Of a DNA stretch of 64,000 bases, positions 2 through 63,211 are shown piece after piece; within the stretch, counting starts at the first letter, position 1; each line of letters begins with the position of its first letter. Below the pieces are notes generated by a model. It saw only the letters and a list, made by a program, of their open reading frames with translations, did no database searches and was not told the DNA's origin. The stretch comes from Candidatus Multivoradales bacterium. Its GTDB lineage: Bacteria > Acidobacteriota > Thermoanaerobaculia > Multivoradales > Multivoraceae. The position numbers and the translations under genes are program-made. Location of the stretch: assembly GCA_965223325.1 (NCBI GenBank), contig CBDCWI010000002.1, positions 384,001 to 448,000 on the forward strand, written 5' to 3'.

Positions 2-493
2 ATGATCAAGGCCGGGCTGCTCTCTCCGCGCCAGCTGCGCGAAGCCGTTCGAAAGCAGGTCGAGCGCATTGCCTGGAGCTTCTTCGAGTACGAAGCGGGC
101 ACGGTCTGCTTTCGTATCCACGAACACCGACAGAGCAATCAGGTCACCATTCAGCTGCCGCTCCGGCAAATGATCTACGAGGGCATCCGCGACCGGGTCA
201 GCACCACCGCTGCTCTCAACCGCCTTGGCCGGCTCGATATCGCGTACAAACAGAGCTGGAACGGCGAAGACCTCATCGACATCGGTTTGACTGGCGAGGA
301 ATTCGCGCTCCTCCAGGCCCTCGACGGCAAGAGAACCCTGCGCGAGATCGTCGGTCTCGACAATGAAAAGACCGATCTCCAGATTCGTCTGGTCTACGCC
401 TTCTACGTGCTCAAACTGGCGCGCCCGGTGGATCCGAGCGATCGCACGCAAGTCACTATCCGACTGCAGACGACGGGTGACAAGTTCGACTGA
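2..493 (+). CDS. DUF4388 (PatA-N-like) domain protein, 5'-truncated by the window edge
   Basis: 'GLLSPRQLREAVRKQVERIAWSFFEYEAGTVCF' and 'MIYEGIR' followed by 'LTGEEFALLQALDGKRTLREI' match the pattern of DUF4388 proteins. Confidence 0.6.
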   Translation: MIKAGLLSPRQLREAVRKQVERIAWSFFEYEAGTVCFRIHEHRQSNQVTIQLPLRQMIYEGIRDRVSTTAALNRLGRLDIAYKQSWNGEDLIDIGLTGEEFALLQALDGKRTLREIVGLDNEKTDLQIRLVYAFYVLKLARPVDPSDRTQVTIRLQTTGDKFD

Positions 494-2393
494 ACCTTCG
501 CCCGGCTCGAGCTTCTGACAGCGCGCGATGCTGGTAGAGCTGGCCGTCTTCGAAACCCAGCTTGCGGTAGTACCCGCGGGTCCCCACCGCCGAGATGACG
601 GCGAGGTTCTTGTAGCCGGCCTGCCGCGCCACTTCCTCGGCGCGAGCCATCAGCCGACGCCCGAGTCCCGAGTGCTGAGCGCGTCCTCGACTCCGCGCAC
701 CGACCTCGACCAGGTTGCCGTAGACGTGCACCTCACGCACCATCGCGGTGCGGCCGCGCTCTCTCAACTCGTCGACGAAGACCGGTTCGTCTGGCAGTGA
801 CAGGCGTAGGAAACCCGCCAGGCGATCCTCCTGATCGACCGCTTCGAGGAAGATCTCCTCCGACTTCCCGTTGCCACAGCCGGCGGCGAAGCTCGTCTGT
901 TTCATCTCGAGGTCATCGGGAGAGACGGTCAACCCCCGAATCTCACGTGCCCTGATCTCCCTGAGCTCTAAACCACGACGACGCGCCTCGTCCTCGGCAA
1001 CCTGGCGGAGGTTGGTGAGCTTGTTACCGACCGCGATCTCTTGCGAGGGGATGTCACGGATTATGCGGGTCAGGCGGCAGTAGCGAGGCGTCGCCTCGAG
1101 GCACCGAGCCAAGACGTCGACCAGCTCGTCGTGTTCCCACGGTCGCCACTCGCCGCGCTCCCAATACTGCATCAACTCCGCACTCGGCACCAGCGAGCAC
1201 GGATAGATCTTGAGCTCGTCGGGACGAAAGGCGGGGTCGTCGAAGAGGCGGTGATAGTCCAGGACGTCCGCCTCTGGGCTCGAACCATGGAGGTTCGGCA
1301 TCCAGTGGGCGTGAACCTTGAATCCCGCCGCTCGCAGCATCGAGAGTGCGCGCCGCGAAGCCGCGACGTCGTGTCCTCGATGGTTGAGCTCGAGAACCCG
1401 GTCGTCGAGGCTCTGCAGCCCGATCTGGACTTTGGTCGCGCCCAGGCGGCGCAAGCGCAACACTTCGGCTTCGTCGATGTGATCGGGCCGGGTTTCGAGC
1501 ACCAGGCCTACCGAGCGCACCGGCGCGGCTTCATTCTCACGATGCAGCGCTTCGAGTTCTTCCCAGGTCGCCGTCTGGCCGGCGAGTTCAGACGCCACCT
1601 CCGGGTTGGAGCGGGTAAAACCGGCGAGCAGACCGTTGTAGCCCTGGCGGCCAGCCGTGTCCTCACCGGCACTCCGCCAGTCGATCGCGGAGGTCTCGCC
1701 CTTCTCCTCGATCGGGTCGTGCACCACCGTGCGGCGGCTCGGACTCCCGTCGAAATCGCCGGCGGTCATGCACTCGCCAAAGTCGTGCATCGCCTCGAAA
1801 CAGCGCGCCAGAAACCAGATGCGATATGGCTCAGGGTAGAAGGACCAGGTACCGCCGAGCACGATCAACTCCACCTTGTCGACGGAGTGCCCAATCTCAT
1901 ACAGAGTTCGCAGCCGCGACCACGTCTGGCCGTAGGGGTCAAAGGCGTGTTCTGCCGCGCGCTGAGCGCCCGGCTCGCTCGAGATGTAGCTCTTGGGCAT
2001 CCGCACATCGTTGGGACAGAAGATGCAACGCCCCGGGCAGGCGTAGGGTTTCGTCAAAACGGTCACCGGCGTCACGCCGCTCTGGGTGCGCATCGGTTTG
2101 CGCCGAATCCTCGCCATCAACGCGCGGGAATCCCAGCCGGCTGACTCGGCCTCTCCATTGCGCTCGAACCAGCGCAACGTGGCAACCAACTCGGCCTTCG
2201 AGTAGAAGCCCCCCTCTGGTCTGGCGTGCTGGCGCAGAATGCTCGCCATCTCGCGGTCTGAGAGGTGCTCGGGAGATTCCGCGACCGCACGCAGAATCGG
2301 CTCGATGCGCTCCCGGTCGGCCGCGGTCGGCGTCCTTCGTACGCTGTCGCGACCCTGCTTCAGGGCGCGCCCCCAAGAGCGCGACCACCGCAA
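456..2393 (-). CDS. elp3: Elp3-family tRNA uridine(34) acetyltransferase/carboxymethyltransferase (radical SAM + KAT domains); exact start uncertain
   Basis: RTQSGVTPV, CPGRCIFC (Fe-S motif), PKSY, GHSVDKVELIVLGGT, ETRPD, RPDELKIYP, RIIRDIP, NLRQ, and KAT motifs REVHVYG, QHSGLGRRLM, VISAVGTRGYYRKLGF. Confidence 0.95.
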   Translation of the reverse strand: MRWSRSWGRALKQGRDSVRRTPTAADRERIEPILRAVAESPEHLSDREMASILRQHARPEGGFYSKAELVATLRWFERNGEAESAGWDSRALMARIRRKPMRTQSGVTPVTVLTKPYACPGRCIFCPNDVRMPKSYISSEPGAQRAAEHAFDPYGQTWSRLRTLYEIGHSVDKVELIVLGGTWSFYPEPYRIWFLARCFEAMHDFGECMTAGDFDGSPSRRTVVHDPIEEKGETSAIDWRSAGEDTAGRQGYNGLLAGFTRSNPEVASELAGQTATWEELEALHRENEAAPVRSVGLVLETRPDHIDEAEVLRLRRLGATKVQIGLQSLDDRVLELNHRGHDVAASRRALSMLRAAGFKVHAHWMPNLHGSSPEADVLDYHRLFDDPAFRPDELKIYPCSLVPSAELMQYWERGEWRPWEHDELVDVLARCLEATPRYCRLTRIIRDIPSQEIAVGNKLTNLRQVAEDEARRRGLELREIRAREIRGLTVSPDDLEMKQTSFAAGCGNGKSEEIFLEAVDQEDRLAGFLRLSLPDEPVFVDELRERGRTAMVREVHVYGNLVEVGARSRGRAQHSGLGRRLMARAEEVARQAGYKNLAVISAVGTRGYYRKLGFEDGQLYQHRALSEARAGRRFSRTCHPSSAVG

Positions 2394-3310
2394 AGAGATG
2401 CGAAGTCGGTTGTCGCGTCGCCAACCCAGCGTCGATCGAGATAGCGCTCGAGGTAGAGCTTCTTGTCTTGCTGTGGGAGTCGAAGGCGGGTCGCCTCAAA
2501 GCCCGGCGGTGGTGCCTCGAACACCTCCTCGCCTGACGCGGTCGCCGCCGCATCCGCTCCGTCAATGGCCGGAGCTGGCCGCCGCGGCAGGGCGTAGCCG
2601 CGGAACTCCCCGTCACCGAGTGCCACCTCCCAGAGGCTGAACAACCCACGTGCGGGATCCCGTTGGGCACACAGGCCTTCCATCGGGCGGCCGCGCGCCC
2701 GCCGGCGCTCGAAGGCACGCTTGATCTGATGGTGAAGCGAAAGGACGTGCGACCCGAACTCAGTGGTCACACTCAGGTACCAAACCACCCGACTTTCCTC
2801 ACTTGCCTCTGGGAAGAGCTCCCGCGCCCGCTCGGCAGCGACCTCTTGCCAACTCGATGGGACAGGTCCGTCGCTGGCGGCGAGCAAGAGCGCGTGGGTC
2901 AGATACTCGTAGGCATCGACCGCGAGAGTCGAAGGCGCGCGCAAAGTCCGCCCGTTTGAGCCTGTCGCGCTCTCGGCGGGCTGCCAATAGACATCAGAGC
3001 GCAGAAACAGGCGCCGCGGCACTGACTCCTCGCCGAGGGTCACCGCTGGCTGATAGAACGCCATCGCCAGGCCAGGACTGTCGTGCGCCAGGATCAAGAG
3101 ACCTGCCGCGGCGCCGGTTACCACCGCCGGAAGCTCTTCGGCTTCGAGCAGGCGAGCGAGCTTCCAACCAGGAAGAGGCGCTCCAAGGTTCGATTCCTGG
3201 ACGGTGGAACGTGCCACGCGAGGGCCAACCAGATTCAACAGGACAGCCGCCAACACCGCCAGCGAGATTGGGCGCCAGACGCCAGGCGCCGCTCGAGGTC
3301 GATGAGGCAT
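2360..3310 (-). CDS. Hypothetical protein with N-terminal signal/TM segment
   Basis: 316-aa ORF filling the gap directly upstream of elp3; hydrophobic N-terminus 'ISLAVLAAVLLNLVG'; no family recognised. Confidence 0.6.
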   Translation of the reverse strand: MPHRPRAAPGVWRPISLAVLAAVLLNLVGPRVARSTVQESNLGAPLPGWKLARLLEAEELPAVVTGAAAGLLILAHDSPGLAMAFYQPAVTLGEESVPRRLFLRSDVYWQPAESATGSNGRTLRAPSTLAVDAYEYLTHALLLAASDGPVPSSWQEVAAERARELFPEASEESRVVWYLSVTTEFGSHVLSLHHQIKRAFERRRARGRPMEGLCAQRDPARGLFSLWEVALGDGEFRGYALPRRPAPAIDGADAAATASGEEVFEAPPPGFEATRLRLPQQDKKLYLERYLDRRWVGDATTDFASLCGGRALGGAP

Positions 3311-3412
3311 GATAGGGAACTATAGCCGCGGGGCTGCGACCCAGGGAGGCCGCAACAGTGCATCGCTCGCTTCTCGAGGCGAGCGTGGCCCGAAGCCATC
3401 GAACGCACAGAG

Positions 3413-4201
3413 ATGACAGCGATGACCAAGTTTTCTGAAGCTCGCGTCGCCCTCGTTACCGGGGCCGGCAGCGGAATCGGCCGCGGCATCAGCCGGGCGC
3501 TCGCCACGTCGGGATACAGCCTGGTCCTCACCGGAAGAAGGAGAAAACCCCTCGAAGAGCTGGCCGCGGATCTTGCCGTTCCAACCCTCGTCGCTCCAGG
3601 TGACGTGTCGAGCCCGGCCCACGCCGCAGGTATGGTTGGCGCCAGTCGAGAGCGTTTCGGCCGGCTCGATCTGTTGGTGAACAACGCCGGTATTGCCCGT
3701 GGCGGACCGCTAGAGTCACTCTCCGACGACGAGGTCGAGGCGCTGCTGTCGATTGATCTGGCCGGGCCCATCCATATGTTGCGCGCGGCACTCCAGCTGC
3801 TCACCGAAACTGCGCACGAGGCCGGTGAGAGTTCGGTGGTCAACATTTCGTCTTCGGTGGCCCTGGCTCCGATCAAGAACTTCTCGGTCTACATCGCCGC
3901 CAAGGCGGGCCTCGACGGCTTCACGCGGGCGATGGCGCTCGAGCTTGCCGAGCGCCGCATTCGTGTCAACGCCGTTTCGCCTGGCATCGTAGAGACTCCG
4001 ATCTTCGAGACCATGATGCCAACCGAAGCGATCAAGGACTTCCTCGCTGCTTTCGATACCGCCGTGCCGCTCGGCCGTGTCGGTCGACCAGACGACATCG
4101 CGGCGACCGTCAGCTTTCTGGCCTCGCCACGAGCGTCCTATCTGACCGGTGCGATTCTGCCAGTCGACGGAGGCCTCAGCCTGGCTGCCGACGGCAAGTG
4201 A
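3413..4201 (+). CDS. Short-chain dehydrogenase/reductase (FabG-like SDR)
   Basis: TGAGSGIG, NNAG, NISS, YIAAK (YxxxK), VNAVSPG, VDGG. Confidence 0.95.
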   Translation: MTAMTKFSEARVALVTGAGSGIGRGISRALATSGYSLVLTGRRRKPLEELAADLAVPTLVAPGDVSSPAHAAGMVGASRERFGRLDLLVNNAGIARGGPLESLSDDEVEALLSIDLAGPIHMLRAALQLLTETAHEAGESSVVNISSSVALAPIKNFSVYIAAKAGLDGFTRAMALELAERRIRVNAVSPGIVETPIFETMMPTEAIKDFLAAFDTAVPLGRVGRPDDIAATVSFLASPRASYLTGAILPVDGGLSLAADGK

Positions 4202-4968
4202 CGGACAGAAACCAAACCGCGGGCGACGCGGCGAAACGAGCCGACGAGCTCAACCGCGATTTCTACGAGACCTGTGCCGCCGACTTCAGTCGCACGCGGC
4301 GCACACCGTGGCCGGGCTGGAAGACGCTGCTCGCACGCCCGGCCATTCAACACGCACTCAACCAGGCCAGGGCCAATGCGCGCCCTCTCCGCGTACTCGA
4401 TGCAGGCTGCGGCAACGGTCGGTTCGCTTCGCTCTTGGCGGGCGAACTCACCGAGTGTGAACTTCCGCTCTCCTACCTCGGCCTCGACCGCTCGCGCGCT
4501 CTGATCGCCGAGGCGCAGAAGGGCGTTCACTTGGCACCGCCTCACCAGGGGCGCTTCGTGGTTGCCGATCTCGAGACTTCGCTCTCGGTCGCCGGGCATG
4601 ACTACGACCTGGTCTCATGCTTCGGCGTCTTTCACCACATTCCAACCCAGGAACGGCGCGTAGTTCTCTTGGCGTCTCTCGCCGGTACCGTCGGCTCACA
4701 TGGTGTGCTGGCGGTCTCCTACTGGCGTTTTCAAACCCTCGAACGGGTCGCGCGCCGGGCGATCGCCAGCGACCTGGAGCCGGGCGCGGTTCTCCTGCCC
4801 TGGGGTGGAGACCCGGCGCACCTGCGCTTCTGTCAGCAGATGTCCGAGGAACAACGCCGAGAGGTCGAGGAGGAGGCTCTGGTTGACGGCGTCGACAGCT
4901 TCACCGCCGACGGCGCCAATGGCGAGGCCAACCTCTACCGCCTCTACCGCGGCCGAACGAAGGGTTAG
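4198..4968 (+). CDS. Class I SAM-dependent methyltransferase resembling the Trm9/ALKBH8 tRNA carboxyl methyltransferase domain
   Basis: FYETCAADFSRTRRTPWP, VLDAGCGNGRF, GVFHHIPTQERR and LAVSYW parallel Trm9/ALKBH8 signature segments; GTGA overlap with the SDR stop. Confidence 0.8.
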   Translation: MTDRNQTAGDAAKRADELNRDFYETCAADFSRTRRTPWPGWKTLLARPAIQHALNQARANARPLRVLDAGCGNGRFASLLAGELTECELPLSYLGLDRSRALIAEAQKGVHLAPPHQGRFVVADLETSLSVAGHDYDLVSCFGVFHHIPTQERRVVLLASLAGTVGSHGVLAVSYWRFQTLERVARRAIASDLEPGAVLLPWGGDPAHLRFCQQMSEEQRREVEEEALVDGVDSFTADGANGEANLYRLYRGRTKG

Positions 4969-5189
4969 GGCGGCCCTTGTGTCCCTCCCGGCTGGCAGGA
5001 CACGTCGCACGACGTCAACAGCGTCACGCTCCAGCTGAACCCTCGGTCAGGATCGCAGGTGGCCCGAGCCAGCTCAGCGCAAGTCGAAAAGCGATAGCTG
5101 GCCCAACCGACGACGGCCACCATCAGCACTGCAAACGCTACTACGCCGCGGAGAGCCGTGCGGCCCAGTTTGTACCCTTGCTTCTCCAT
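4965..5189 (-). CDS. Small hypothetical membrane protein
   Basis: 74 aa, one hydrophobic helix, Cys-containing C-terminus; starts 16 nt after the sdhB stop with GGGGA upstream. Confidence 0.4.
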   Translation of the reverse strand: MEKQGYKLGRTALRGVVAFAVLMVAVVGWASYRFSTCAELARATCDPDRGFSWSVTLLTSCDVSCQPGGTQGPP

Positions 5190-5205
5190 CGCATCCCCCG
5201 GGTGT

Positions 5206-7892
<2,687 letters not shown>

Positions 7893-7911
7893 CGAACGCT
7901 CCTGTTTGCGG

Positions 7912-8586
7912 TCACGACAGAACTCCCGTCAACACGCCAATTGGCACGAGCAGAAAACCCACGGTCACCATCACTGCAAACAAAACAGCGAAGGGCCGTC
8001 GCAACCGGTCGATCGAGGGATGACGAAGACCAAGGGTTTGAAAGAAACTCCACAGGCCGTGGTAGAGGTGAGTCCCGAGGAGCAGAACCGCGACGACGTA
8101 GGCCAACGCAACCGGCCACTTTGAGAGCCCACTGGTCAGGTTGTGGTACGCGTCTCCGGCGATGAAGTCCGGGTGGGCGTTGCCGACCGTCAGATGCATC
8201 AAGTGGTACACGATATAGGCGAAGAGAATGTAGCCGCTGTAGCGCATCGTGCGTGAGGCATAGTCGAGCTGCACCCCTTGCCGACGTCGATAGTTCTGTG
8301 GACGCGCGCGACGGTTGACGAGCGTGAGCGCGGTCGCAGCCCAGATGTGAAGACCCGCGGCAAGCAGAAGACCCAGGCGCGCAATCCAGAGTGCCCCCTC
8401 GTGGGGAATGAACGGCGAACCGAAGTCGCGAATGCCCTCGGCATAGTGGTTGAAGGCTTCGGCGCCTTGAAACGCCTTGAGGTTTCCGGCCATATGGCCG
8501 ACGACGAACCCGAAGAGCATCAGGCCGGTGATTGCCATGACCGCTTTCTGGAAAATCGTCGATCGATGAAGTGTCGTCAAGGACAT
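7912..8586 (-). CDS. sdhC: Succinate dehydrogenase cytochrome b558 membrane anchor
   Basis: Five TM helices with heme-ligand His (GHMAGN, LHI, YHLMH, HLYHG); first gene of sdhCAB. Confidence 0.93.
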
Positions 8587-8845: not shown

Positions 8846-10168
8846 TCATAGGAAATCGCGGTCACGGATCTTCTTGGGCAGGAACTCCTCGGTCACAAAG
8901 GAGATGCCTTTGTTCGAGAGTGCCTCCAGTTCCCATTTCACGCCCTCGGCCAGCATGTGTTTGATCTCGCGCTGCCAGGCCCGGTCTTTGAACCAGTCGT
9001 AGGCGAGAATCTCACGCGCCCGGGCCTTGTCCTGCTCGTTGAGTTTGATGCTCACCGTGTTGGCAATGCCGAACTTCGCTGGGTCATAGCTGGAGAGGCC
9101 AAGAAACTTGGCACTCGGAACAGCCATCCGCTGCGACTCGAACGCCAGATTGATCGAGCCCTGCTTCACGACCGAGTGGATGTAGTAGCCCCAGGGATCG
9201 TTGTCGACGAAGACATAGAGCGGCAGCTTCAGCTCCTTGACCATGCGAAAAAGCAGCCGACGCACACCGCGCGACGGCTGCCCCTGCCCGGTGACCAGAA
9301 TGCACTTATGCTTCTTCCAGAACTTGTCTTCGTTCAGGCGTGCCCAAACTGCCTCTTTCTCGACCAGGAGAATGAACTTCGCATTGTGTTTCACAAACTG
9401 CACGACGTTCGGTTCGACGATCCCTGGCACCGACCAACCACCTGATCCCATTCGCGCGAGATTGATGGTGTCGCCCGCATCGATGATGGTCGCCGGGCCG
9501 ACCACGGAGCCTCGCTTGGCAGCAAACAGCTTGAGCTCCTCGCGCAAAGCGCCGAGAGTGACCTCGAGATCTTCAATGATCGGATCGGATTCGCTCTGGT
9601 CGTCGAAGGTGTTCTCTTTGCCGTCGGCAAGGGTGTACTTGCTCATGTAGTACATGTCACGAATGCTGGTGGTCTTGTCCTCCTCCTGCAGCTGCGAACA
9701 GCCACGGGCGACCACGAACGTTTGCATGTACTTCTTGGCCTGATTGAGATTGAACAGGCTGCGGCGTTGCGTCACCTTGCCCATCTCGAGAATCTTCTTC
9801 TTGGGCGAGAAGGTGACGTTCGAAAGCGTGCGCGATGGAATGTCGACGAAGGGATCGATGCCCTGTTCGGCCAGCTCGACGGTCTTCTCGGCGAGGTGGA
9901 TAATCTTGAGGTCGGTGTCGAGCCGCGGCGGGATCTTGAAACTCTTGACGTTCGAGTTGTCGAGCTTCCGGGAAGCCCGTTCGAGCTGCTTGGCAGTCGG
10001 CTTCCTGGCCCGGGCCTTCTTCTTGGCCCCCGCCTTCTTCTTCGAAGCCTTCGCAGCACTCTTCTTCGCGACCTTCTTCTTCGTCGCCTTCTTCTTCGCT
10101 CGCTTCTTGGCGGCCTTCTTCTTGCTCGCGCTCCTCTTGCGTGTGGGTGTTTTCTTGCGAGTCGCCAT
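8846..10168 (-). CDS. top6A: DNA topoisomerase VI subunit A (Spo11 homolog) with Lys/Ala-rich N-terminal extension
   Basis: IRDMYY catalytic Tyr motif, FDDQSESDPIIEDLE, TOPRIM motifs VEKEAV and DNDPWG, GSI, KWELEAL; adjacent to top6B. Confidence 0.95.
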   Translation of the reverse strand: MATRKKTPTRKRSASKKKAAKKRAKKKATKKKVAKKSAAKASKKKAGAKKKARARKPTAKQLERASRKLDNSNVKSFKIPPRLDTDLKIIHLAEKTVELAEQGIDPFVDIPSRTLSNVTFSPKKKILEMGKVTQRRSLFNLNQAKKYMQTFVVARGCSQLQEEDKTTSIRDMYYMSKYTLADGKENTFDDQSESDPIIEDLEVTLGALREELKLFAAKRGSVVGPATIIDAGDTINLARMGSGGWSVPGIVEPNVVQFVKHNAKFILLVEKEAVWARLNEDKFWKKHKCILVTGQGQPSRGVRRLLFRMVKELKLPLYVFVDNDPWGYYIHSVVKQGSINLAFESQRMAVPSAKFLGLSSYDPAKFGIANTVSIKLNEQDKARAREILAYDWFKDRAWQREIKHMLAEGVKWELEALSNKGISFVTEEFLPKKIRDRDFL

Positions 10169-10202
10169 CGATTCTTCTACCTTCTAAAAGGAGCCGGTCA
10201 CC

Positions 10203-11921
10203 TCAACCGAGGTCGAGAACAGCCTGTTCCTCTGGATCTCCGCCGGCGTCGCCCCGGTCGACGATCAACGTGTTCTCGGCGTCCGCCAGCTCTTCGTTAC
10301 TCTTCTTCGAAGACTTGAGCTCGGCTAGCAACTCCGCCAGCTCCGTCTTACCGGTCGAAATCCCAACGAGGTTGTCACGAAACGGTTCTTGATCGCGCGC
10401 TGTGATGCGCTCGACACAGTTGACGACTTCGTCCAGGTAGAGGTTGAAGACCTCGCGCCGCTTGGCTTCGTTACGCGCCCGCGCCTTGCGCTTGACCCAG
10501 GTGCCCATGCGGCGACCACAAGATTGCACCGCAAGGCGGATCTCTTTGCGAATCTCCTCGTAGTCCGCGACTGCTTCCTTGCTCTCGGAACTGAAGGGCA
10601 CCCACACCGAGGCCATGTGCACCAAAACGACCAGCGGACCCGTCGGCAGAGCTCCGCGTGACTGGGCGAGGCCGTAGCTCTTCCAGCCAACGTCCATCAC
10701 CGCGCGGGTGATCGCGCAACCGCCCGCCTGATAGAGCAGCGGCACGCGGTTGGCGAAACGCAACACCTTGGCCAGTTCATCGCCCGGTAGTTCCCCACCA
10801 TAGGCCAGGCCGACTTCGATCTGGAACGGATTGCCGCGGTAGACCGTCGGTCGTCGCGTTTCGACGGTGTAGAACTCAGCCGGCAGACCGCGCGTCAGGC
10901 CAGCGAGCAGCTCGCGCATGCCAATCGGTGAGAGGCAGTTGGTCGGCGGCGCCATGATCCTGGTCGACGGGTCGTTGATCGCCCGATAGAGCTGGTCGAC
11001 GCCCCCACGCTGAATGGTGTTGGGCCGGTTGCGTGGCTTGAGGCCGGCTTTGGTGACGATCTTCGAAGCCAGTGCCGGACTGACCCGGCTGAAATCCTTG
11101 GCCAGGAAAGAGGTCACCGTTGGCTGCTTCGTGGCCTGCAACATCTTCATCAAAACGCCCAGCTCGACACCGTGCGGGTGCGGCTTGATTTCCTTCGGAG
11201 CGATTGGGTTGTCGTCGACCGTGCGCTCCCAGAGCACCTCGTCGCCGGCGGGGTTCTTGTAGTAGAGCGTCACGTGGGGATTCGCCACCGCCACCTGGCG
11301 CAGGAACTCGTCGACCGAACGCTTACCCTTCTGGTAGTCACCCTCGAGTTCGATCTCGAGCTGCGTGCCGGACCTGCGGTCCCACTTGGACAGCTTCTTC
11401 TCTTTGAGGATCTTGGGCTTGTTGGAAGTGGTGTCGATCATCACCTGCATCCACACCGCTGGCTTGCGTGGACCGGTCTTCGAGATCGCGATCATCGGCT
11501 TGCCGGTGGTCAGCTGGCCGTACATTGCCGCCGCCGAGATGCCGATCCCCTGTTGGCCGCGACTCTGTTTCATGCTGTGGAACTTCGAGCCGTAGAGCAG
11601 CTTGCCGAAAATGTTGGGAATCTGTCTCGACACGATGCCGGGGCCGTTGTCGCCGACCCGCACGACAAAGCGCTTCTCCTTGACCTTGCCCTTCTCCATC
11701 ACTCGCTCGAGCTCGACGGTGATGTCGGGCAGGATGCCGGCCTCTTCACAGGCATCGAGCGAGTTGTCGACCGCCTCCTTGACCGCGGTCAGGAGTGCCT
11801 TGCGCAGAGAATCGAAACCCAGCAGATGTCGATTCTTGGCAAAGAACTCAGAGACTGAGATCTCACGCTGCTTCTTCGAAAGGGTCTCGGCGGTGACCCG
11901 TTTCGTCTTCCTGGTGGCCAT
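10203..11921 (-). CDS. top6B: DNA topoisomerase VI subunit B (GHKL ATPase)
   Basis: [63 protein letters not shown]; start moved to ATG 11921, which has AGAGGA/GAGGA upstream. Confidence 0.95.
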
Positions 11922-12058
11922 TCCTCGGCTTCCTCTGGGTCCATGGTTCGCTAGCAACCGCAACATGAGAGATGGTAACGACTACGGTTCGAACTAGCAG
12001 CGCTCGGGCTCTGTGTCAACGAAGAGGGGCTCCGTCTGGCCGCCGTGAGCGAGGTTCC

Positions 12059-47213: not shown

Positions 47214-48803
47214 TCACTTCCAGAAGGAAACGTCGCCCGACTCGAAGCCGTCGGCGAACAGATGGGGCCCGACCGGCTCCCCGGTTTGCCAGCGTTCCTT
47301 TGCTGGGTTGCTGCATAGGGCCGGTCGCGAGTCGAGGGGCGCTGGCCAGGGCTTGTTGCCGTAGAACGCCGGGCGGCTCTCGAGGTATAGGGAGTCGGGG
47401 ATCTCCTGCGGGAGGCCGCTCTGCCAGGTCGTGCCAGCAGAAGTGTAGTTGCCGTGCTCGATGGTGTCCTCGACGCCGGCCTCGATCTCGATCTCTTCTC
47501 CAGCGCCCACCAAATCGTTGGCGATGAGGTTCTGACGATGCGATTGGTCGCTTACGTCGAGGCCTTCGCCTTCGAAGCAGTTGCGCAGGAGGGTGTTGCC
47601 CGGGCCGGCCGGGCCCCAGTAATCCGCGATGTGTGCCTCTTGTACGACGTTGCCTTCGAAGAGGTTGAACGCGGCGTAGTGGCCGTGAACTGAGATGTCG
47701 GGGGGCGACCAGCTTTCACCCGACACGGTTTCCCGCGAGTAGTTGTAGCCGAAGACGTTGCCGCTGGCGCCTACCTGGACGAGCATGGCATGGCGCAGCG
47801 ACTCGAAGACGTTGTTCTCGACCAGACAGTCGGTGGTGTGACGGCCGAGCTCGACACCGTAGCCATGGCCGCCGCTCCCGTAGTCGTGGCTGTGGTGGAG
47901 GTAGCTGTCGCGCACCAGGCAGCCGTAGGTGACCTGGGTGCTGATGTGGGCACGCACCGTGCTGGAAGTCTCGATCCCGATGAACCAGATGTTGGCGGCG
48001 TTTCGAACCCGCACGGTTTCGCCGTCGCCATCGTCTAAACGGTTGATCGACAGATGCTCGAGGCCGACTTCTTCGATCAGACCTTGCGGCCTGATGCGCG
48101 GATTGAGCGACGGTTCGTACGGGAAGTGCAGCGGGTCGCGCAGGGTCAGACTGTTACCCGAGCGCGCAGTGACCCACACGACCTCCCCTACCGAGCCGTC
48201 AGCCCACGAAACATCCCAGCGCGGATCGGTGTACATGATCTCGGGGTCGTTTTCCTGCTCGATCTCAGCCCAACCTGGAACGGTGAACGAAGAGGCGTCG
48301 GCAACGGTGACCTGGCGGGCACCCTTCGCCGCACCCGCGGGTACGCCGGTCCACTCACCCCGGTCGTAGCGCAGAATTTCGATCGGATCTTCGTCCCGAC
48401 CCGCGAGATCGAAGACCAGGCGACTCGAGGTTCCGACTCCCCGCAGGACGACCCGCGACTCGAGTTCGAGGTGCTGCTCTAGCAGGTAGTGGCCTGCGGG
48501 TACCAGGACGGTGCCCCCCGAAGCCGGCACCGCATCGATCGCAGCCTGAAACGCCGCGGCGTCATTGGCTACGCCATTGCCGTGGGCCCCGAAGTCGACC
48601 ACCGTGTGCACCACCGGGAAAACTGGTGGACCTTCGGCCATCGCCGGCTGCCAATCGACCGTGCGGTCGCTGGTGAGATAGGCGGGGGCCCGCCGCTCAG
48701 ACTGATTGAAGGCCTGCGCGGTGAGACCGCCGGCAGCCAGAAGCGTGAGCAAGAGGAGCACGCCCGTAGCCGGGCGGGCCAGGATCGAGGAAAAGTTCGG
48801 CAT
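47214..48803 (-). CDS. Secreted right-handed beta-helix protein (pectate-lyase/GH28-like fold) with C-terminal FADGFESGD tail
   Basis: VVDFGAHGNGVANDAAAFQAAID, VPAGHY, LRGVG, and repeated Asn-ladder coils (LVENNVF, GNVFGYN, NLFEGN). Confidence 0.8.
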   Translation of the reverse strand: MPNFSSILARPATGVLLLLTLLAAGGLTAQAFNQSERRAPAYLTSDRTVDWQPAMAEGPPVFPVVHTVVDFGAHGNGVANDAAAFQAAIDAVPASGGTVLVPAGHYLLEQHLELESRVVLRGVGTSSRLVFDLAGRDEDPIEILRYDRGEWTGVPAGAAKGARQVTVADASSFTVPGWAEIEQENDPEIMYTDPRWDVSWADGSVGEVVWVTARSGNSLTLRDPLHFPYEPSLNPRIRPQGLIEEVGLEHLSINRLDDGDGETVRVRNAANIWFIGIETSSTVRAHISTQVTYGCLVRDSYLHHSHDYGSGGHGYGVELGRHTTDCLVENNVFESLRHAMLVQVGASGNVFGYNYSRETVSGESWSPPDISVHGHYAAFNLFEGNVVQEAHIADYWGPAGPGNTLLRNCFEGEGLDVSDQSHRQNLIANDLVGAGEEIEIEAGVEDTIEHGNYTSAGTTWQSGLPQEIPDSLYLESRPAFYGNKPWPAPLDSRPALCSNPAKERWQTGEPVGPHLFADGFESGDVSFWK

Positions 48804-48860
48804 ATGCCGATATTACTATAGTTCTGCGCCTTCGGCCATCCCGATCCTCAAAGCCGCTCG

Positions 48861-50135
48861 TCAGCCCGCTGTAGGAACGGACCCGGCTGCCGTCTCCTCG
48901 CGAGCCGCCGCCAACATGGCGTTCATGTCGCGGTACATGGCACTGAAGTCGGTTTCGAAGACGTCGCCGATCAGGACCCGGGTGACTGCACTTTGATGCT
49001 CTGGATGTTTCTTCAAGAACCGGCCGAAGCTGAACTCAGGGTCGTAGAACGAGCGCACCAGACCGAGCACCGCGGAGATCCCCCGCTCGAGTCGCCCCCT
49101 GAAGGAACCGATGCGCTCACCGGAGAGATCGCCCTCGGCGATCGCAAGGACGGCTGTGTCAGCCGCCATCACTCCGGCGTGTAGGGCCAGAAACACCCCC
49201 GACGAATACACCGGATCGATGAAGCTGAAGGCATCTCCCACCAGAACCCAACCGTCGCCCGCCATGCGCTCGAACTGATACGAAAAATCACGCACCATGT
49301 CGACTGGACGACACTGCACTGCACCCTCGAGCCGCCGTCTGATTTCGGGACAGCGCCTCGTCTCCTCGAAGAAGACCTCGTGCGGCAACTTGCCGCTACG
49401 CTTCATCGCCGCGGCGGGTCCCACGACGCCGATCGAGACCACGTCATCGGGTAGTGGGATGTACCAGAACCAGGAGTCGCCTTCGGGAACCGTCTGCAGA
49501 ATCAGGGTGGCGCCCTCGTCGACGCCTTCATCGCGCCAGGCTCCTTTGAACCAGGTAAAGATCGAGGCGTGACGCAGGTCGTAGTCCTTCTTGCCGAGAT
49601 CGAAGTGTCGCCCGAGAACCGTGCTCTGCCCACTCCCGTCGATGAAAACCTTCAACGAGACCTCGGCCTCGCAGCCTTCTTTGTCACGCAGGCAAACGCC
49701 GGTGACCTGCGCGCCGTCGCGAACGACGTCATGCACACTCAGGCCGCGCAAGCACTCCGCGCCCCGCTCTCGGGCACACTCGAAAAGCATCTGATCGAAG
49801 TCGGCCCGTCTTACCTGCCAGGTTCGAGCGCGCTCCTCTGGAACTTCGTCCTTGAAGTAGAACGGCGCTGAGGCGCGACCATTCCTGGCGTAGAACTGCA
49901 CACTGTGCTTCTCGACGAAGTTCGACTCCTTCAACTTCTCGAGTGCCCCCATGCGTACCAAAGCATCGTAGGTCTCGGGCATCAGCGACTCACCAATCTT
50001 GAATCGCGGTGCCTCATCACGCTCGACGAGAAGGGTACTGAGACCTTCGCGAGCCGCGACTGCCGCTGCCGCGCAGCCGGCCGGCCCGGCGCCCACGACC
50101 ACCACGTCATAGGCGTCTCGCAGAGGGGCGCTCAT
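48861..50135 (-). CDS. Flavin-dependent halogenase-like oxidoreductase
   Basis: GAGPAG, KIGESLMP, Lys in FVEKHS, WFWYIP (WxWxIP), GDAFSFIDPVYSSG. Confidence 0.8.
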   Translation of the reverse strand: MSAPLRDAYDVVVVGAGPAGCAAAAVAAREGLSTLLVERDEAPRFKIGESLMPETYDALVRMGALEKLKESNFVEKHSVQFYARNGRASAPFYFKDEVPEERARTWQVRRADFDQMLFECARERGAECLRGLSVHDVVRDGAQVTGVCLRDKEGCEAEVSLKVFIDGSGQSTVLGRHFDLGKKDYDLRHASIFTWFKGAWRDEGVDEGATLILQTVPEGDSWFWYIPLPDDVVSIGVVGPAAAMKRSGKLPHEVFFEETRRCPEIRRRLEGAVQCRPVDMVRDFSYQFERMAGDGWVLVGDAFSFIDPVYSSGVFLALHAGVMAADTAVLAIAEGDLSGERIGSFRGRLERGISAVLGLVRSFYDPEFSFGRFLKKHPEHQSAVTRVLIGDVFETDFSAMYRDMNAMLAAAREETAAGSVPTAG

Positions 50136-51520
50136 GTGTAGCGCGCCCCTTGATACTTCTCGTCATAGAACGCCGGCAGCAATTGATCGACCCGCAAGAG
50201 GCCGCCCGGAGTCAACCGGATCTCGTCCTCGCCGAAGGTGAGCAGGCCTTCGGCTTCGAGCTCCTCCCATTGCGAGCGCCACTCGAGCACTACGTCTGAA
50301 GCAAACTTGTCCTGGAAGTAGCGGGGATCGATCACCCCGTACTTGAGCTGCAGAATGAGCTCCCGAGTCAATTGCTCACGCAGCGACATCTTGAAGGCGC
50401 GGCGCACCGCCATGCCACCCAGTGCCTGCTCCGTGCGGGTTTCGATGCGTTCGAGGTAGTCGCCGAAACGATCGGCGTTCTGGAAATGCACCCCGCTCAT
50501 GTGACCGAACGACGAGACCCCGGCGCCAATCATGTCGGCACCCCGCCAGAGCTTCTCGGTGTAGACGAAGCGACAGTCGCGATCTCGCCGCAGCAGCGTG
50601 TAAGCGCTCCACTTCTCGAAGCCCGCCTTCTCCAACTCCTCGATGGCATAGGCGTGCCAGGCGCGTTTGGTCGACCAATCGGCGAACTCGAGGCCTGAGT
50701 CTCCGCGCAGTTTGTCTTTGGAGTAGACCGTATTGAACGGCAGCTCCATCTGATAGATCGTCACGCTGTCGGGGTCCCAGTCGATCGTCTTCTGGACGGT
50801 CTCTTTCCAGGTTTCCCAACTCTCCCCCACCATTCCGGCGATCAAATCGATGTTGACCTGCGGGAAATCGAGCGCCTCGAGCCAGGGCTTGACCCGATCG
50901 ATCTCGCGCGTCAGGTGGGCGCGACCGTTCTCCTCGAGAATCCGGTCGTTGAAGTTCTCGATACCGACCGAAAGCCGGGTGACACCGATCTCGCGCAGTG
51001 CTTCGAGCTTCGACTGAGTCAGCGTACCCGGCTCGCACTCGAAGGCGATCTCTTCGGTACGGTTCCAGGGCAGCGCGGCCTTCAAACGCTCGACCAGGGG
51101 CAACAGCTGCTTCACCGCGATGTAGGACGGCGTTCCGCCGCCGAAGTAGACGTAGTTGAGTGGCCGGTCGCGCACCGCCGCGGTCTCGGCCCAACGCTCG
51201 ACCTCGGTGCCCAGGGCCTCGAGGTAACGCTGGATCTGCTCGGCGTTCTTGTCTGTGTAGACACGGAAGTAACAGAACTTGCAGCGCTTGCGACAGAAAG
51301 GAATGTGCAGGTAGAGACCAAGCGGCGTGTTCGGGCGCGGGGCGGAGGCGAAGGCCCGATGAGCCGCCTCGAGATCCTCTTCCTGATCACTCCACACCGA
51401 ATATGGCGGGTAGTTCGAAACGAAGACCGAACCGACTCCAGTCGCCTCGAGGTCGAGGTGCGCCGTGGCCGGCTCACTCCGCGTCGGTCGGGGCCCGGCG
51501 TTGTCAGGAGAAGTCGTCAT
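50132..51520 (-). CDS. HemN-like radical SAM enzyme
   Basis: YLHIPFCRKRCKFCYF, YFGGGTPS, RLSVGIE, NIDLIAG; ATGA overlap with the halogenase-like gene. Confidence 0.88.
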   Translation of the reverse strand: MTTSPDNAGPRPTRSEPATAHLDLEATGVGSVFVSNYPPYSVWSDQEEDLEAAHRAFASAPRPNTPLGLYLHIPFCRKRCKFCYFRVYTDKNAEQIQRYLEALGTEVERWAETAAVRDRPLNYVYFGGGTPSYIAVKQLLPLVERLKAALPWNRTEEIAFECEPGTLTQSKLEALREIGVTRLSVGIENFNDRILEENGRAHLTREIDRVKPWLEALDFPQVNIDLIAGMVGESWETWKETVQKTIDWDPDSVTIYQMELPFNTVYSKDKLRGDSGLEFADWSTKRAWHAYAIEELEKAGFEKWSAYTLLRRDRDCRFVYTEKLWRGADMIGAGVSSFGHMSGVHFQNADRFGDYLERIETRTEQALGGMAVRRAFKMSLREQLTRELILQLKYGVIDPRYFQDKFASDVVLEWRSQWEELEAEGLLTFGEDEIRLTPGGLLRVDQLLPAFYDEKYQGARYT

Positions 51521-51636
51521 GTTGAGGGCCTCAGGAGTTTAAACAGCGCCAGAGCGCCACCGGAGCCGGCACCTACGTACGGTCGGCCAGCTGCCTCCCC
51601 GATCTTATGCGCACCCTGTCCGAGCTGCAGGTAGAC

Positions 51637-52884
51637 CTACTCGAAGCAGTAGACGACTCCGTCCAGACTCGCGATCACCAGCTTCTTCGCCGCCACTGCC
51701 GGGCTCGAGACAATCGCTGAACCGGTCTCGAACTTCCAGACTGGCTCGCCGGTTGCGGCGTCGAGGGCGAACACCTCGCCGGTCTTGCTGCCGGCAAAGA
51801 TCCGGTCGCCCACCACGACCGGCGACGAGTCGATGCGGGCGCCGCTGTTCCAGGTCCACCGTGCCTTGCCGGTCTCACGGTCCAGGAGGTGAATCATCTT
51901 GTCGCGGCCACCGATCACCGCGTACTCCTCCGTCACCGCCGCCGAGGCGTAGTACGGGAACTTGCGCTCGGGATGCTCATAGCGCCACAGAACGCGGTGC
52001 TTGTCGAGATCGACTGCCAGGACTTCGTTTTCGTAGGTACCGACGTAGGCGACACCATCACGAATCGCCGGTGAGCTCGGCGCCTGTCCACCGAGATCGA
52101 CCTTGGCAATCGTCGAGCCATCGTCAATGTTGATCAACCAAAGGTAACCGTCGCACCCGGAGACCGTCGTCGTTCGGCCGACAATTGCCGGTACGGCGTG
52201 CACGTAGCCGTCTGTTTCGACCTTCCAGGCAAGGGAGCCGTCGTTGCGCTCGAGGCTGTAGAGCGAATTGTCGTAGGAACCGATCAAGAGACGATCGTCG
52301 TAGAAGGTCGCCGACGACAGAATCTCGGCCATGGTCTCGAAGGTCCACAGCTGGTTGCCGGTGGCCGCATCGACGGCATGGAGAAACCCATACTCGTCGC
52401 CGACATAGACCACTCCTTCGAAGATCGAAGGCGTCGCCTTGATGGGGTTTTGGGCGTTGTACTTCCACAGTTCGCGACCGTCGTCGAGCGACAGCGCCCA
52501 GAGGTAGCCGTCGTAGTCACCGATATAGACGACCCCGTCGTCGATGATCGCCGATCCCTCGATGTCCGCGGCGAGATCTTTGGTCCACTTGACCTTCAGG
52601 TCGAAGGCCAGCTCACTGGCGGCGACTCCCGACATCGACAGATCGCCTCGCACCAGTGGCCAGGAGTCGGGCGCGACGGCGCCGAGACGCTCGCTCGCCT
52701 TGTCGTTGGAAGCGGCGCCGGCACCCGCGAGGAGTCCCACAGTGAGCGCCAGGATGAGAGCCCGACGCAGGCTACGTGGCGCCTTGGAGTTCTGTAATTC
52801 AGTACCCGCCGGACGGACCGGCCATTTCCTCGTTCGCACTCTAATGCTCCAGTAGGGGCCCGCGATCGCTACCGTGATCGCCAT
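51637..52884 (-). CDS. Secreted PQQ-like (BamB/AfsK-type) beta-propeller protein; start uncertain
   Basis: Repeated [ST]P.V..G.VY.G..DG...A.D...G...W blades; signal-like segment. Confidence 0.88.
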   Translation of the reverse strand: MAITVAIAGPYWSIRVRTRKWPVRPAGTELQNSKAPRSLRRALILALTVGLLAGAGAASNDKASERLGAVAPDSWPLVRGDLSMSGVAASELAFDLKVKWTKDLAADIEGSAIIDDGVVYIGDYDGYLWALSLDDGRELWKYNAQNPIKATPSIFEGVVYVGDEYGFLHAVDAATGNQLWTFETMAEILSSATFYDDRLLIGSYDNSLYSLERNDGSLAWKVETDGYVHAVPAIVGRTTTVSGCDGYLWLINIDDGSTIAKVDLGGQAPSSPAIRDGVAYVGTYENEVLAVDLDKHRVLWRYEHPERKFPYYASAAVTEEYAVIGGRDKMIHLLDRETGKARWTWNSGARIDSSPVVVGDRIFAGSKTGEVFALDAATGEPVWKFETGSAIVSSPAVAAKKLVIASLDGVVYCFE

Positions 52885-52971
52885 GGCCAGAAGGGGATTG
52901 CAGATTGTACGTGAGCGACTGGGGTTGGAGATTTCAGCCGGATTTTCAGTCGAGATTGCAAACTCCAGGGC

Positions 52972-54138
52972 TCAGAGGCACTGGCGGTAGAGCTCGCGCA
53001 GCGCCTGGGCGTCGACCGGGCGCGGATTGAAGCTGCCGGTCCACTGCTCGGCCGCTGCCTGCGCCAGCTCCGGGAGTTCACTCTCCTCAAACCCAACTTC
53101 CTGCAGGCTGCCAGGTATTCCGGCGGCCGCGGCGAACGCTTCCATGCGTGCCGCCAGCTCAGCCGGGCCCGCAACCTGCTCGAGCTCGGCGTAGCGTTCG
53201 GCCACCACTTCGGTCTCACCGTTCCAACGGACGACCGCCGGAAGAACGATCGACACGGCGATGCCATGCGTCACGTCTCGCACCGCCGTTAGAGGGTTCG
53301 CCAGGGCGTGCGCCGCGCCGAGCATCGAAGCCTCGACGGCTGCACCCGAGAAATAGGCACCGACCTGCATCTCCTGCCAGTCCGCGGGAGCGGCGTCACC
53401 GGCCAAGACAGTCTCGAAGTGCCCCGAAAGCCGCTCCCAGGCGGCCCGCGACCACATGCGAGAGAACGGATTGGCGGGTTTGCTGACCAGGCTCTCGACG
53501 GCATGCGAGAGAGCGTCCAGGCCCGTCACTGCGATCACCTCACGCGGAGCAGTCCGCGCCAACAGCGGGTCGAGCAGCACGTGACCGAAGCGGGCCTTTT
53601 GATCGCCGCAGGCCATCTTGCGATGGTCGCGCGCTCGCGAGATCAAAGCGTATGACTGTGCCTCGCTACCGGTCCCTGCGGTCGACGGCACACCGATCGA
53701 CGGCAGCATGGGGAGACTCGCCTTGCCATAGCCGAGGTAGTCCTCCATTCGGCCGCCGTTGGTGAGCAGGAAGTTGATGCCCTTGGCGCAGTCCATCGAG
53801 CTCCCGCCACCGAGACCTACCAGGAGATCGGCCGAGGCCTTGCGCGCCGCCTCGACGCCCGCCGCAACGTGCTTCTCCGTCGGGTTCTCACGCACCCCGT
53901 CGAAGACGACCGCCGCGAGCCCGGCCGCTGCAAGCGACTGCAAGGCTCGTTCGACATGGCCGGCGCGCTCGATCCCCGGGTCAGTGACCACCAGGACCCG
54001 CGAGCCACCGAGCCTCTTGGCACACTCACCGAGCGTGTCGGCTACACCGGCACCACACGAGATGCGCGCCGCGCGCAGCTCGGCGGTCCAGACAGAGGGC
54101 CCCTCCGGGCCTCGGCTTTCCTCTCGCTCATCGACCAC
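52972..54138 (-). CDS. Iron-containing (group III) alcohol dehydrogenase
   Basis: GGGSSMDCAK, PSTAGTGSE, DALSHAVES, GAAHALAN, THG. Confidence 0.93.
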   Translation of the reverse strand: MVDEREESRGPEGPSVWTAELRAARISCGAGVADTLGECAKRLGGSRVLVVTDPGIERAGHVERALQSLAAAGLAAVVFDGVRENPTEKHVAAGVEAARKASADLLVGLGGGSSMDCAKGINFLLTNGGRMEDYLGYGKASLPMLPSIGVPSTAGTGSEAQSYALISRARDHRKMACGDQKARFGHVLLDPLLARTAPREVIAVTGLDALSHAVESLVSKPANPFSRMWSRAAWERLSGHFETVLAGDAAPADWQEMQVGAYFSGAAVEASMLGAAHALANPLTAVRDVTHGIAVSIVLPAVVRWNGETEVVAERYAELEQVAGPAELAARMEAFAAAAGIPGSLQEVGFEESELPELAQAAAEQWTGSFNPRPVDAQALRELYRQCL

Positions 54139-54214
54139 CGCTGGTTCTTACCACGGGTGACACCGCACCGCGAGTGAGGCGGGCCAAAGAATCTCGCCGA
54201 GGGACGAGCGCCCT

Positions 54215-54571
54215 TCAGCGGCGGATCAGGAGATCCTTGTTGGTTTTCCCGGCTGCCAGGGCATCCTTGTACCACTGCGGGCGTCGACCACGCCCCGACC
54301 ACGTCTGGGAGCGGTCGGCCGGATTGCAGAACTTGGGAGGAAGTTTTCCGCGGCGTGCACCCCTCTTCTTGAGGCGGGGCGGTCCGGTCTTTTCGATGCT
54401 GAAAAGCGACTCGACGGTCTCCCCGACGTTGGCAGCGATCTTGCGAATTTCGCGCTTTGCTGCGGTGCGTTCGGCGCGTTTTCGCCGCCCGAGCTCGCCT
54501 TTGAGTTGGTTGAGTCGGCGCTCTAGTTCCTTGGTACTGACTTCTTCCATGATGTTCTCTCGGACCAGCAT
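54215..54571 (-). CDS. H-NS-family nucleoid-associated protein
   Basis: N-terminal coiled coil, then PPKFCNPADRSQTWSGRGRRPQW (TW[ST]GxGRxP DNA-binding motif); ATG 54571 with GGAGG/GAGG upstream. Confidence 0.85.
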   Translation of the reverse strand: MLVRENIMEEVSTKELERRLNQLKGELGRRKRAERTAAKREIRKIAANVGETVESLFSIEKTGPPRLKKRGARRGKLPPKFCNPADRSQTWSGRGRRPQWYKDALAAGKTNKDLLIRR

Positions 54572-54912
54572 CGACCTCAGGCCTCCCCGATGCTGCTTCA
54601 TTGATGTTTGACTAGGTGAAGATGGAAGCTGATCGATCTCGGTCGCTGATGGTACCGCTCGGGTCGAGCGGGGTGCCGAACCGGGACCCGCGAAGGGCTC
54701 GAGCCTCAGAAGCCCAGGCTTGAAAAGCTCAGGTCTGAGCAATCCGCGGCCATTGGCGATCTGGGGCCCTTGCAATCAAGCGCTGGAGTGGAGCGCCTTT
54801 CCTTTTCAGAAGAACTGCACACTACCCAATTTTCGGCGCCAGCGGTATCGCACGAGCCGCATGGCGCCAGAATGGCCAGGAATGGCGAGCACAGGCTGCT
54901 AAGGTCCCGTGC

Positions 54913-57165: not shown

Positions 57166-57202
57166 TCGGATCGCGGTTGTTCGTTGGGGTCCGGGCCTCG
57201 GC

Positions 57203-58702: not shown

Positions 58703-58770
58703 GGGGAGTTCCTTGTTGTCTCTTGGGTTGAAGCGAAGAACCGGTTCGTTGGTGGCCAGTTCGGGGTCAC

Positions 58771-61023: not shown

Positions 61024-61232
61024 TCTGGTCACTCCTGTGGGAACCGGCGCCTGGGAGGGCGAGCGCCTGATTCTGAGCCTTCGGTACTTGGTTGGGATGA
61101 GAGCGTTGGGTCTGAGGGGTGCTCGGAAGGGATTCTCGGCCTCGAGCGCCTTTCGTACCATGGGTGCAGGCGCGGCGGGACTGAGTCCGCCCTGAAAGCG
61201 CTCCCTGAAACGCGTGCGGCCGCCGGTGAATT

Positions 61233-62723: not shown

Positions 62724-63211
62724 ACCGGCTTGAACATGGTCACCAACCAGGCGCCGGTGCCAGCCATCGCGATTCCCAGCAGGAACGGCCAGCGAATCGC
62801 GTCCAGGCCTCCGGCGGGCGGATGAAACGACATCGCGACGAACGCGTTGACGATCGGGGCACAGCCAAAAACGATCGACATCACGACTGCCGGAGTGCCC
62901 CCGCTGCCGAACGCCAGGAGCACACCGAAGGCCCCGATCGCCCCAACGACGCCGGCCACCAGTGACCAGATCGCACCCTTGGGAGATACGGCAAAGCCAC
63001 CGCCGTTCAACCACAGAAGAGCGGCCGGCGCCAGCACCGCGGTCAAGAAGTACGCAATGCCAACCCACAGAAACGCTTTGTAGCGACCGTTGATCGGGTC
63101 TCCGATCGCCATGTTTCCCTGGTGCAGAAAGACGCCGTAGCACCCCCATGCCGCAACCGTCATGAAAGCAAACCACAGCCAACCCATCGAAGCACCATCG
63201 GTCGTTGCCAT
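62720..63211 (-). CDS. EamA/DMT-like small membrane protein
   Basis: About 5 TM helices, AAWGCYG, GTPAVVMSIVFGCAPIVN; GGAGG RBS. Confidence 0.75.
   Translation of the reverse strand: MATTDGASMGWLWFAFMTVAAWGCYGVFLHQGNMAIGDPINGRYKAFLWVGIAYFLTAVLAPAALLWLNGGGFAVSPKGAIWSLVAGVVGAIGAFGVLLAFGSGGTPAVVMSIVFGCAPIVNAFVAMSFHPPAGGLDAIRWPFLLGIAMAGTGAWLVTMFKPV

Follow-up and report, generated by a model that had tools for sequence, protein, structure and literature searches.

The DNA analysed here (the window) is a 64,000-nucleotide stretch of contig CBDCWI010000002.1 of Candidatus Multivoradales bacterium. It carries two genes in divergent transcription units: elp3, and a gene encoding a Trm9-like class I S-adenosylmethionine (SAM) methyltransferase, candidate O-methyltransferase of 5-carboxymethyluridine at tRNA position 34 (cm5U34). 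The two genes probably specify a bacterial route to 5-methoxycarbonylmethyluridine (mcm5U34): Elp3 would make cm5U34, the Trm9-like enzyme would convert it into mcm5U34, and the pair would stand in for MnmE/MnmG (MnmEG). This route is considered probable because MnmEG is absent and relatives of the two enzymes of yeast, animals and some archaea are encoded back to back. The pairing had been proposed in a first-pass annotation of this DNA. It is now supported by a family profile, by co-occurrence, by the missing mnmE and mnmG and by a Trm112 homologue; the product would be mcm5U.

The methyltransferase open reading frame (ORF) is intact (256 aa) and contains the motifs quoted in the first-pass annotation. 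The protein alone gives generic Pfam and NCBIfam matches, and Trm9 is a weak match (E 0.016, rank 13 in a single-sequence PDB search). A word-index search found 46 homologous proteins, two of them already automatically labelled TRM9. The family profile (A1) was made from 42 of these (P0036 and P0044-46 were left out as short or marginal). The best of its 193 PDB matches is Yarrowia lipolytica Trm9 (5cm2_Z, E 3.6e-21, profile positions 26-230); the next one (5.9e-15) covers the core only, and the Trm9 match alone extends through the C-terminal 'W...RY' lid. Among 7998 longer candidate proteins, three passed 1e-15: all are AlkB-type domain fusions and one is named ALKBH8. Trm9 is thus first among solved structures and only ALKBH8-type proteins are found among longer ones, as the first-pass annotation anticipated. 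No methyltransferase fused to Elp3 or Trm112 was found among the longer proteins, which is weak evidence. In the reverse direction, with a profile of the three ALKBH8-type domains as query, the window gene comes out on top among the 65,447 stop-to-stop ORFs of its genome (3.8e-12; next, 7.6e-9). The family numbers 2,715 representatives at E <= 1e-30, which may include non-bacterial proteins.

Eight residues are reported as essential in yeast Trm9: R29, D72, H116, W145, W168, R241, Y243 and N271 (Letoquart 2015, PMC4678810). Their equivalents in the window protein are R34, D97, H147, W176, W202, R210, C212 and N245, respectively (alignment to 5cm2; for N245, alignment to three ALKBH8-type domains). 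Seven of the eight are therefore kept, Y243 being the exception. Conservation was counted in 285 partly redundant rows (99 locus translations and 186 proteins; left out: P0036, P0044-46, P0114, P0119, P0193 and the window's own locus, L099). The residue is kept in 284 rows for R34, 280 for D97, 279 for H147, 284 for W176, 254 for W202, 283 for R210 and 275 for N245; Y23 and F30 are kept in 285 and 284. All carboxylate- and uracil-binding residues are kept, as are the equivalents of yeast Y18, F25, R29, D72, H115, H116, W145, W168, R241 and N271. Two likenesses claimed in the first-pass annotation do not hold. The supposed terminal Y-W is not one: W176 ends strand beta5 (= Trm9 W145), and the Tyr lies one column off that of Trm9. 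The 'HFS' likeness fails at the position of Saccharomyces cerevisiae H24, which is Asp29 here; the H24A mutation of yeast Trm9 is described as harmless (PMC4678810).

The structure model of the methyltransferase is confident (predicted local distance difference test, pLDDT, 94.9). It has a two-stranded lid (197-202 and 205-213) after strand 165-176; such a lid after beta5 is described for Trm9 (PMC4678810). Among the Foldseek rows shown, 5cm2_Z has the highest target-normalised template modelling score (TM-score, 0.76). The class I fold, the N-terminal helix and the two-stranded lid are common to the window protein, to Trm9 as described in complex with Trm112 (5CM2, PMC4678810) and to the ALKBH8 domain. 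Unlike yeast Trm9 and ALKBH8, the window protein is bacterial, single-domain and elp3-linked, with Cys in place of Y243 and Gln in place of H244.

The elp3 gene is complete, as first annotated: its ORF is intact (645 aa) and the protein scores 466.7 bits with TIGR01211 (family cut-off, 350). The TTG start, which gives a 34-nt overlap with the upstream gene, is uncertain. An N-terminal radical SAM part is fused to a C-terminal GNAT/KAT domain (Pfam: Radical_SAM, Radical_SAM_C, GNAT). The protein matches nine solved bacterial, archaeal and eukaryotic Elp3 sequences, best 5l7j (Dehalococcoides mccartyi type, E 1.6e-94). The iron-sulphur cysteines 119, 123 and 126 are invariant across 63 of 63 neighbouring Elp3s, and the REVHVYG, QHxGLG and YYRKLGF motifs agree with the consensus of these 63 rows. 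The radical SAM/KAT architecture and the CX3CX2C motif are common to D. mccartyi Elp3 (5L7J), as described in PMC6367351. The window Elp3 differs by an N-terminal extension of ~95 aa, an insertion of ~70 residues relative to 5l7j (residues 204-279) and the lack of the three linker zinc cysteines. These are reported as conserved in the Elp3 proteins of bacteria and archaea (PMC6367351); they are missing at residues 477-482 of the window protein, and Cys occupies the three positions in 31, 22 and 22 of the 63 neighbours. From its sequence, the window protein is a member of the Elp3 family, for which cm5U34 formation is known at the family level. Elp3 is described as the maker of cm5U34, and in archaea and bacteria it probably acts without partners (PMC13315578, PMC6367351); the D. 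mccartyi account (PMC6367351), in its accessible part, names no downstream methyltransferase.

The genome that contains the window (G000) comprises 6.69 Mb in two contigs and is 98.2% complete and 0.11% contaminated. Neither mnmE (searched in this genome only) nor mnmG is found above cut-off in it; the best matches are Der, Era and TrmFO. MnmL, an MnmD-type domain and cmoB were also searched for in this genome and not found. It has mnmA, one PF01171-family gene, 12 sense-codon tRNAs with U34 and a tRNA-Sec. Of the genome's 51 tRNA calls, contig C1 (2.1 Mb) has only three. Some calls look doubtful: two long tRNA-Arg(GCG), and a second tmRNA call that overlaps a tRNA-Ser.

Co-occurrence and gene neighbourhood, the check suggested by the first-pass annotation, link the methyltransferase to elp3. 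Among 41 related genomes, 27 have the methyltransferase (profile E < 1e-50) and 14 give nothing better than 5.8e-17. Elp3 is found in 29 of the 41: all 27 carriers, plus G005 and G040. The pair is divergent within ~4 kb in 24 carriers, in tandem in one and on separate contigs in two. The methyltransferase may be missing from the Elp3-only relative G005 (L146:8400-8992) because the gene for the short-chain dehydrogenase/reductase that usually precedes it is followed there by another frame, presumably transposase-like, and then by the end of the contig. GTDB loci were taken as the best 80 of at least 347 confirmed ones from a pattern-limited search, some of which may duplicate genomes of the relatives. 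Their titles refer to Chloroflexota, Patescibacteria, Acidobacteriota, Myxococcota and Spirochaetota. In 56 of these 80, elp3 lies <= 10 kb away (divergent in 55); seven of the 24 others have <1 kb of upstream flank, and Elp3 is encoded elsewhere in 19 of the 24 genomes. Five Pseudomonadales-titled loci (L007, L024, L044, L045, L050) carry the family; their genomes have only 1.1-1.5 Mb and no mnmG; the titles are possibly wrong, or the genomes possibly reduced.

Two unbiased phylum samples were searched, only some candidates per genome being scored: 201 genomes of the window's phylum (including the unpublished G127) and 121 of the phylum of G072. In the window's phylum, methyltransferase and Elp3 are found in the same eight genomes and mnmG in 171, with no overlap. 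In the other phylum, 19 genomes have Elp3, 16 of these the methyltransferase (15 as divergent neighbours) and 66 mnmG, again with zero overlap between mnmG and Elp3. Taken together, Elp3 is found in 24/24 methyltransferase genomes and mnmG in 0/27 Elp3 genomes. The methyltransferase was not found without Elp3 in three unbiased samples (0/27, 0/8, 0/16). No mnmG was found in any of the 41 relatives, nor in the 50 tested among the 80 locus genomes (many incomplete). The pairing is far beyond chance. Fisher tests were computed and left unused because the genomes are kin.

Features of the elp3-methyltransferase locus and the unlinked Trm112 homologue
Feature	Position	Strand	Evidence or remark
elp3; radical SAM + acetyltransferase, tRNA U34 carboxymethyltransferase family	456-2393	minus	TIGR01211, domains, PDB match
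316-aa gene before elp3, with a hydrophobic N-terminus; optional neighbour	2360-3310	minus	ORF, homologues
102-bp gap between divergent units; presumed promoters	3311-3412	.	ORF layout
Classical short-chain dehydrogenase/reductase (SDR)	3413-4201	plus	adh_short_C2, E 2e-61
Trm9-like class I SAM methyltransferase; candidate cm5U34 O-methyltransferase	4198-4968	plus	Profile match, active-site mapping, model
Trm112 homologue, 94 aa	G000:C2:3948566-3948742 (L004:1486-1770)		Unlinked to the pair; whole gene at about G000:C2:3948551-3948835

One study has four DNA runs, and in three of them a single contig covers positions 400-5250 with zero differing letters; these runs are possibly the source data. 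The units are divergent as first annotated, and the genes that border the gap are not elp3 and the methyltransferase: they are the 316-aa gene and the SDR gene. The elp3 and methyltransferase genes are the second genes of their units, 1.8 kb apart. The 316-aa gene has no match in Pfam, NCBIfam or Atlas; homologues (27-28% identity) occupy the same place in 3/14 relatives' regions. The end of the SDR gene overlaps the methyltransferase start by 4 nt, and the two are translationally coupled. Of the same-family relatives examined, most have an SDR orthologue (42-52%) directly before the methyltransferase; beyond these, only loci titled Thermoanaerobaculia or Multivoraceae have one there. In G003 and G004, whose elp3 lies on a different contig, the SDR gene still sits beside the methyltransferase gene. 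It is missing between the pair in genomes of the same order (G007, G025, G030) and in the other phyla sampled, and the methyltransferase adjoins elp3 directly in relatives G028, G036 and G039. An obligatory third-enzyme role of the SDR was rejected, as the SDR is lineage-limited; a role in this lineage is possible. Neither the SDR nor the 316-aa gene is needed for the pair.

Further genes of the window are as follows. A succinate dehydrogenase/fumarate reductase operon (5206-8586, minus) converges on the methyltransferase gene and is also downstream in 3/14 relatives' regions. A 74-aa hydrophobic ORF without family match (4965-5189, minus) lies between the two. Topoisomerase VI B and A genes (8846-11966, minus) are found here in a bacterium; subunit A begins with a Lys/Ala-rich tail of ~65 residues. 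The region 47214-63182 (minus) groups genes for a halogenase-like flavoprotein, a radical SAM protein, an iron alcohol dehydrogenase and four pyrroloquinoline quinone (PQQ)-type beta-propellers.

No Trm112 gene is present in the window, as first annotated; one is present elsewhere in the genome. The inventory proposed in that annotation gave missing mnmE and mnmG and a Trm112 (YcaR-type) homologue. In this order the homologue has 83-95 aa and a conserved insert, whereas bacterial forms usually have 60 aa. The ORF downstream of it is presumably polyprenyl-synthase-like, judging from a motif. The modelled methyltransferase-Trm112 complex scores 0.76 (best of three controls, 0.01), with contacts agreeing at >=93% and a partner pLDDT of at least 82; the mark used, reached by 116/157 solved and 2/215 mismatched pairs, is roughly applicable here. 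The modelled interface joins methyltransferase residues 119-124 (beta3) to Trm112 residues 64-73; a beta-zipper of the same kind is described for Trm9-Trm112 (PMC4678810). The model is taken as likeness and not as binding because like complexes are already solved. Trm112 was found in 41/41 relatives, with or without the pair, and was therefore rejected as a co-evolving member. It was found in nine of 21 distant carriers, several weakly, and not found in the other 12. Trm112 is probably not obligatory across the methyltransferase family.

The proposed pathway is as follows. Stand-alone Elp3 would bind the tRNA and take acetate from acetyl-CoA, as known at the family level, and a 5'-deoxyadenosyl radical would join the acetate to C5 of U34, giving cm5U. 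The Trm9-like enzyme would then transfer a methyl group from SAM to the carboxylate of cm5U34 (SN2), giving mcm5U34, as active-site conservation and gene linkage suggest. By analogy with yeast Trm9, R34 and H147 would hold the carboxylate and H146 and N245 would read the uracil, with W176 and W202 stacking. Judging from the model, the 94-aa Trm112 homologue may serve as an activator that binds strand beta3. MnmA would 2-thiolate the Lys, Glu and Gln tRNAs, giving the hybrid mcm5s2U34 (s2, 2-thio). The base would have its usual role, in that A- and G-ending codons would be read accurately. A broader version is held tentatively, at slightly less than even confidence: several bacterial lineages would run Elp3 and the Trm9-like enzyme instead of MnmEG, with mcm5s2U34 made by MnmA; Trm112 (YcaR-type) would activate the enzyme here, and in Trm112-less carriers the enzyme would act alone.

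Production of mcm5U by Trm9-Trm112 is described in yeast and Haloferax volcanii (PMC6144793). The archaeal route, as presented there (H. volcanii mcm5U; clustered elp3/trm9 in Sulfolobus), shares with the window pair a two-enzyme logic without Elp1/2/4/5/6, as well as gene clustering. The hosts here differ: they are bacteria, MnmEG is absent from them, and MnmA would do the thiolation; this comparison was made without archaeal Trm9 sequences. MnmEG (5-substituted uridine, xm5U34) and CmoM (uridine 5-oxyacetic acid, cmo5U, to its methyl ester mcmo5U) act at the same tRNA position, and CmoM also yields a carboxyl methyl ester. The window pair differs from both in its enzymes and its chemistry, and mnmG never overlapped with Elp3 in the samples.

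Several results weigh against the proposed route. The Y243 column holds Tyr in 7/285 rows and Cys in 244/285, and the window protein has Cys there too (Cys212); the yeast Y243 mutant is reported to keep ~10% activity and to fail in vivo (PMC4678810). The following His is kept in 266/285 rows, and the window protein has the minority state Gln213. When single ALKBH8-type queries were used, the window gene ranked first for two of three and second, behind another methyltransferase, for the third. In a tree whose rows include no archaeal or fungal sequences, the family plus ALKBH8 split from 16 other G000 methyltransferases with a support (Shimodaira-Hasegawa-like approximate likelihood ratio test, SH-aLRT) of 71 only, and ALKBH8 joins four 'RYY-type' rows (98) and not the window's group. 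The latter, an 'RYC-type' group of 28, is separate (84). Of the structural expectations in the first-pass annotation, a confident model with a lid was obtained, and a fold search singling out Trm9 was not: Foldseek places 5cm2_Z at rank 35 by E-value without separating class I methyltransferases, and 5cm2 is absent from the 50 rows of a second fold search. The genomes are kin, and their counts overstate independence. Genomes with neither Elp3 nor mnmG were found (12/41 relatives, 22/201 and 36/121), so mnmG loss needs no pair. Finally, the human Trm9 paralogue hTRM9L is reported to make no mcm5U in yeast (PMC3598078), and Trm9 likeness alone is therefore no proof.

The enzyme is classed as Trm9-like and not as Trm9 because the Y243 equivalent is Cys212 and the tree is weak: judged from its sequence, it is a member of a diverged Trm9-like subfamily rather than Trm9 proper. 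A second subgroup (P0037, P0038, P0040, P0042) keeps a Trm9-type 'RYY/YYY' lid and groups with ALKBH8 (98). A first tree was left unused: the window protein falls at an open fork of it, and its value of 99 parts only ALKBH8 from the outgroup rows. The relatives with neither Elp3 nor mnmG, all at least 91% complete, are G002, G008, G026, G027, G029, G031-G035, G037 and G038.

The methyltransferase could act on the Elp3 product and the mature base be other than mcm5U: the ester could be an intermediate on the way to another group (such as that of 5-carbamoylmethyluridine, ncm5U, or some novel derivative), or the diverged lid could suit a variant substrate. In this lineage, a step of this kind could involve the coupled SDR. 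The family-wide Tyr to Cys change in the lid, the SDR that stays with the methyltransferase in G003 and G004, and the report that H. volcanii lacking Trm9 shows no cm5U, with conversion into another compound as the presumed cause (PMC6144793), are in line with this. It is unlikely, given that all carboxylate- and uracil-binding residues are kept, that the eukaryotic ALKBH8-type match P0195 also lacks the Tyr, and that no third gene is required, the SDR being absent in the six relatives cited above and in other phyla. A Trm9-derived protein with another job, as for hTRM9L, is quite improbable. Such a protein would use a different carboxylate or RNA site, or be a tRNA-binding partner of Elp3. 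Besides the hTRM9L precedent (PMC3598078), the weak tree support, the separate subfamily and the presence of Elp3 without the methyltransferase in 2/29 relatives and 3/19 genomes of the second phylum speak for it. The near-invariant catalytic residues over the 285 rows and the methyltransferase never found without Elp3 in the unbiased samples speak against it. A CmoM-type job is opposed by the missing upstream enzyme (cmoB) and by a score of 18.1 with the CmoM model NF008264, whose cut-off is 366. A generic methyltransferase lying near elp3 by chance is hardly credible. The generic matches of the lone sequence and the two unrelated genes that intervene between the pair would suit this view; it is already refuted by the divergent linkage in loci titled to five phyla and by the matching presence and absence in the two phylum samples. 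Formation of mcm5U34 by Elp3 and the Trm9-like enzyme is the reading retained.

Two reviews place mcm5U in eukaryotes and archaea and nowhere else (PMC7694415, PMC6382703, as far as their accessible text goes), and a 2017 review describes such methyltransferases as undetected in bacterial genomes and bacterial Trm112 as being without known function (PMC5372719, same scope). A full-text search, with most subscription papers and supplements outside it, found no paper on a bacterial Elp3-Trm9 pair or on measured bacterial mcm5U; a 2026 preprint on YhcC has no bearing on the pair. As far as sequences can tell, the pair is real and widespread, and is a bacterial variant of a known pathway. The surprise is limited: the chemistry itself is known, and some family members already bear the automatic TRM9 label. 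If the proposed route is true, it supplies the wobble pathway so far missing for many bacteria without mnmEG and explains the fate of the cm5U made by bacterial Elp3. It would also provide a testable partner for the bacterial Trm112 family; if the activator reading of Trm112 is true as well, this YcaR-type family would gain a defined partner. The pair would offer biochemistry the Elongator/ALKBH8 route in a minimal form of two genes.

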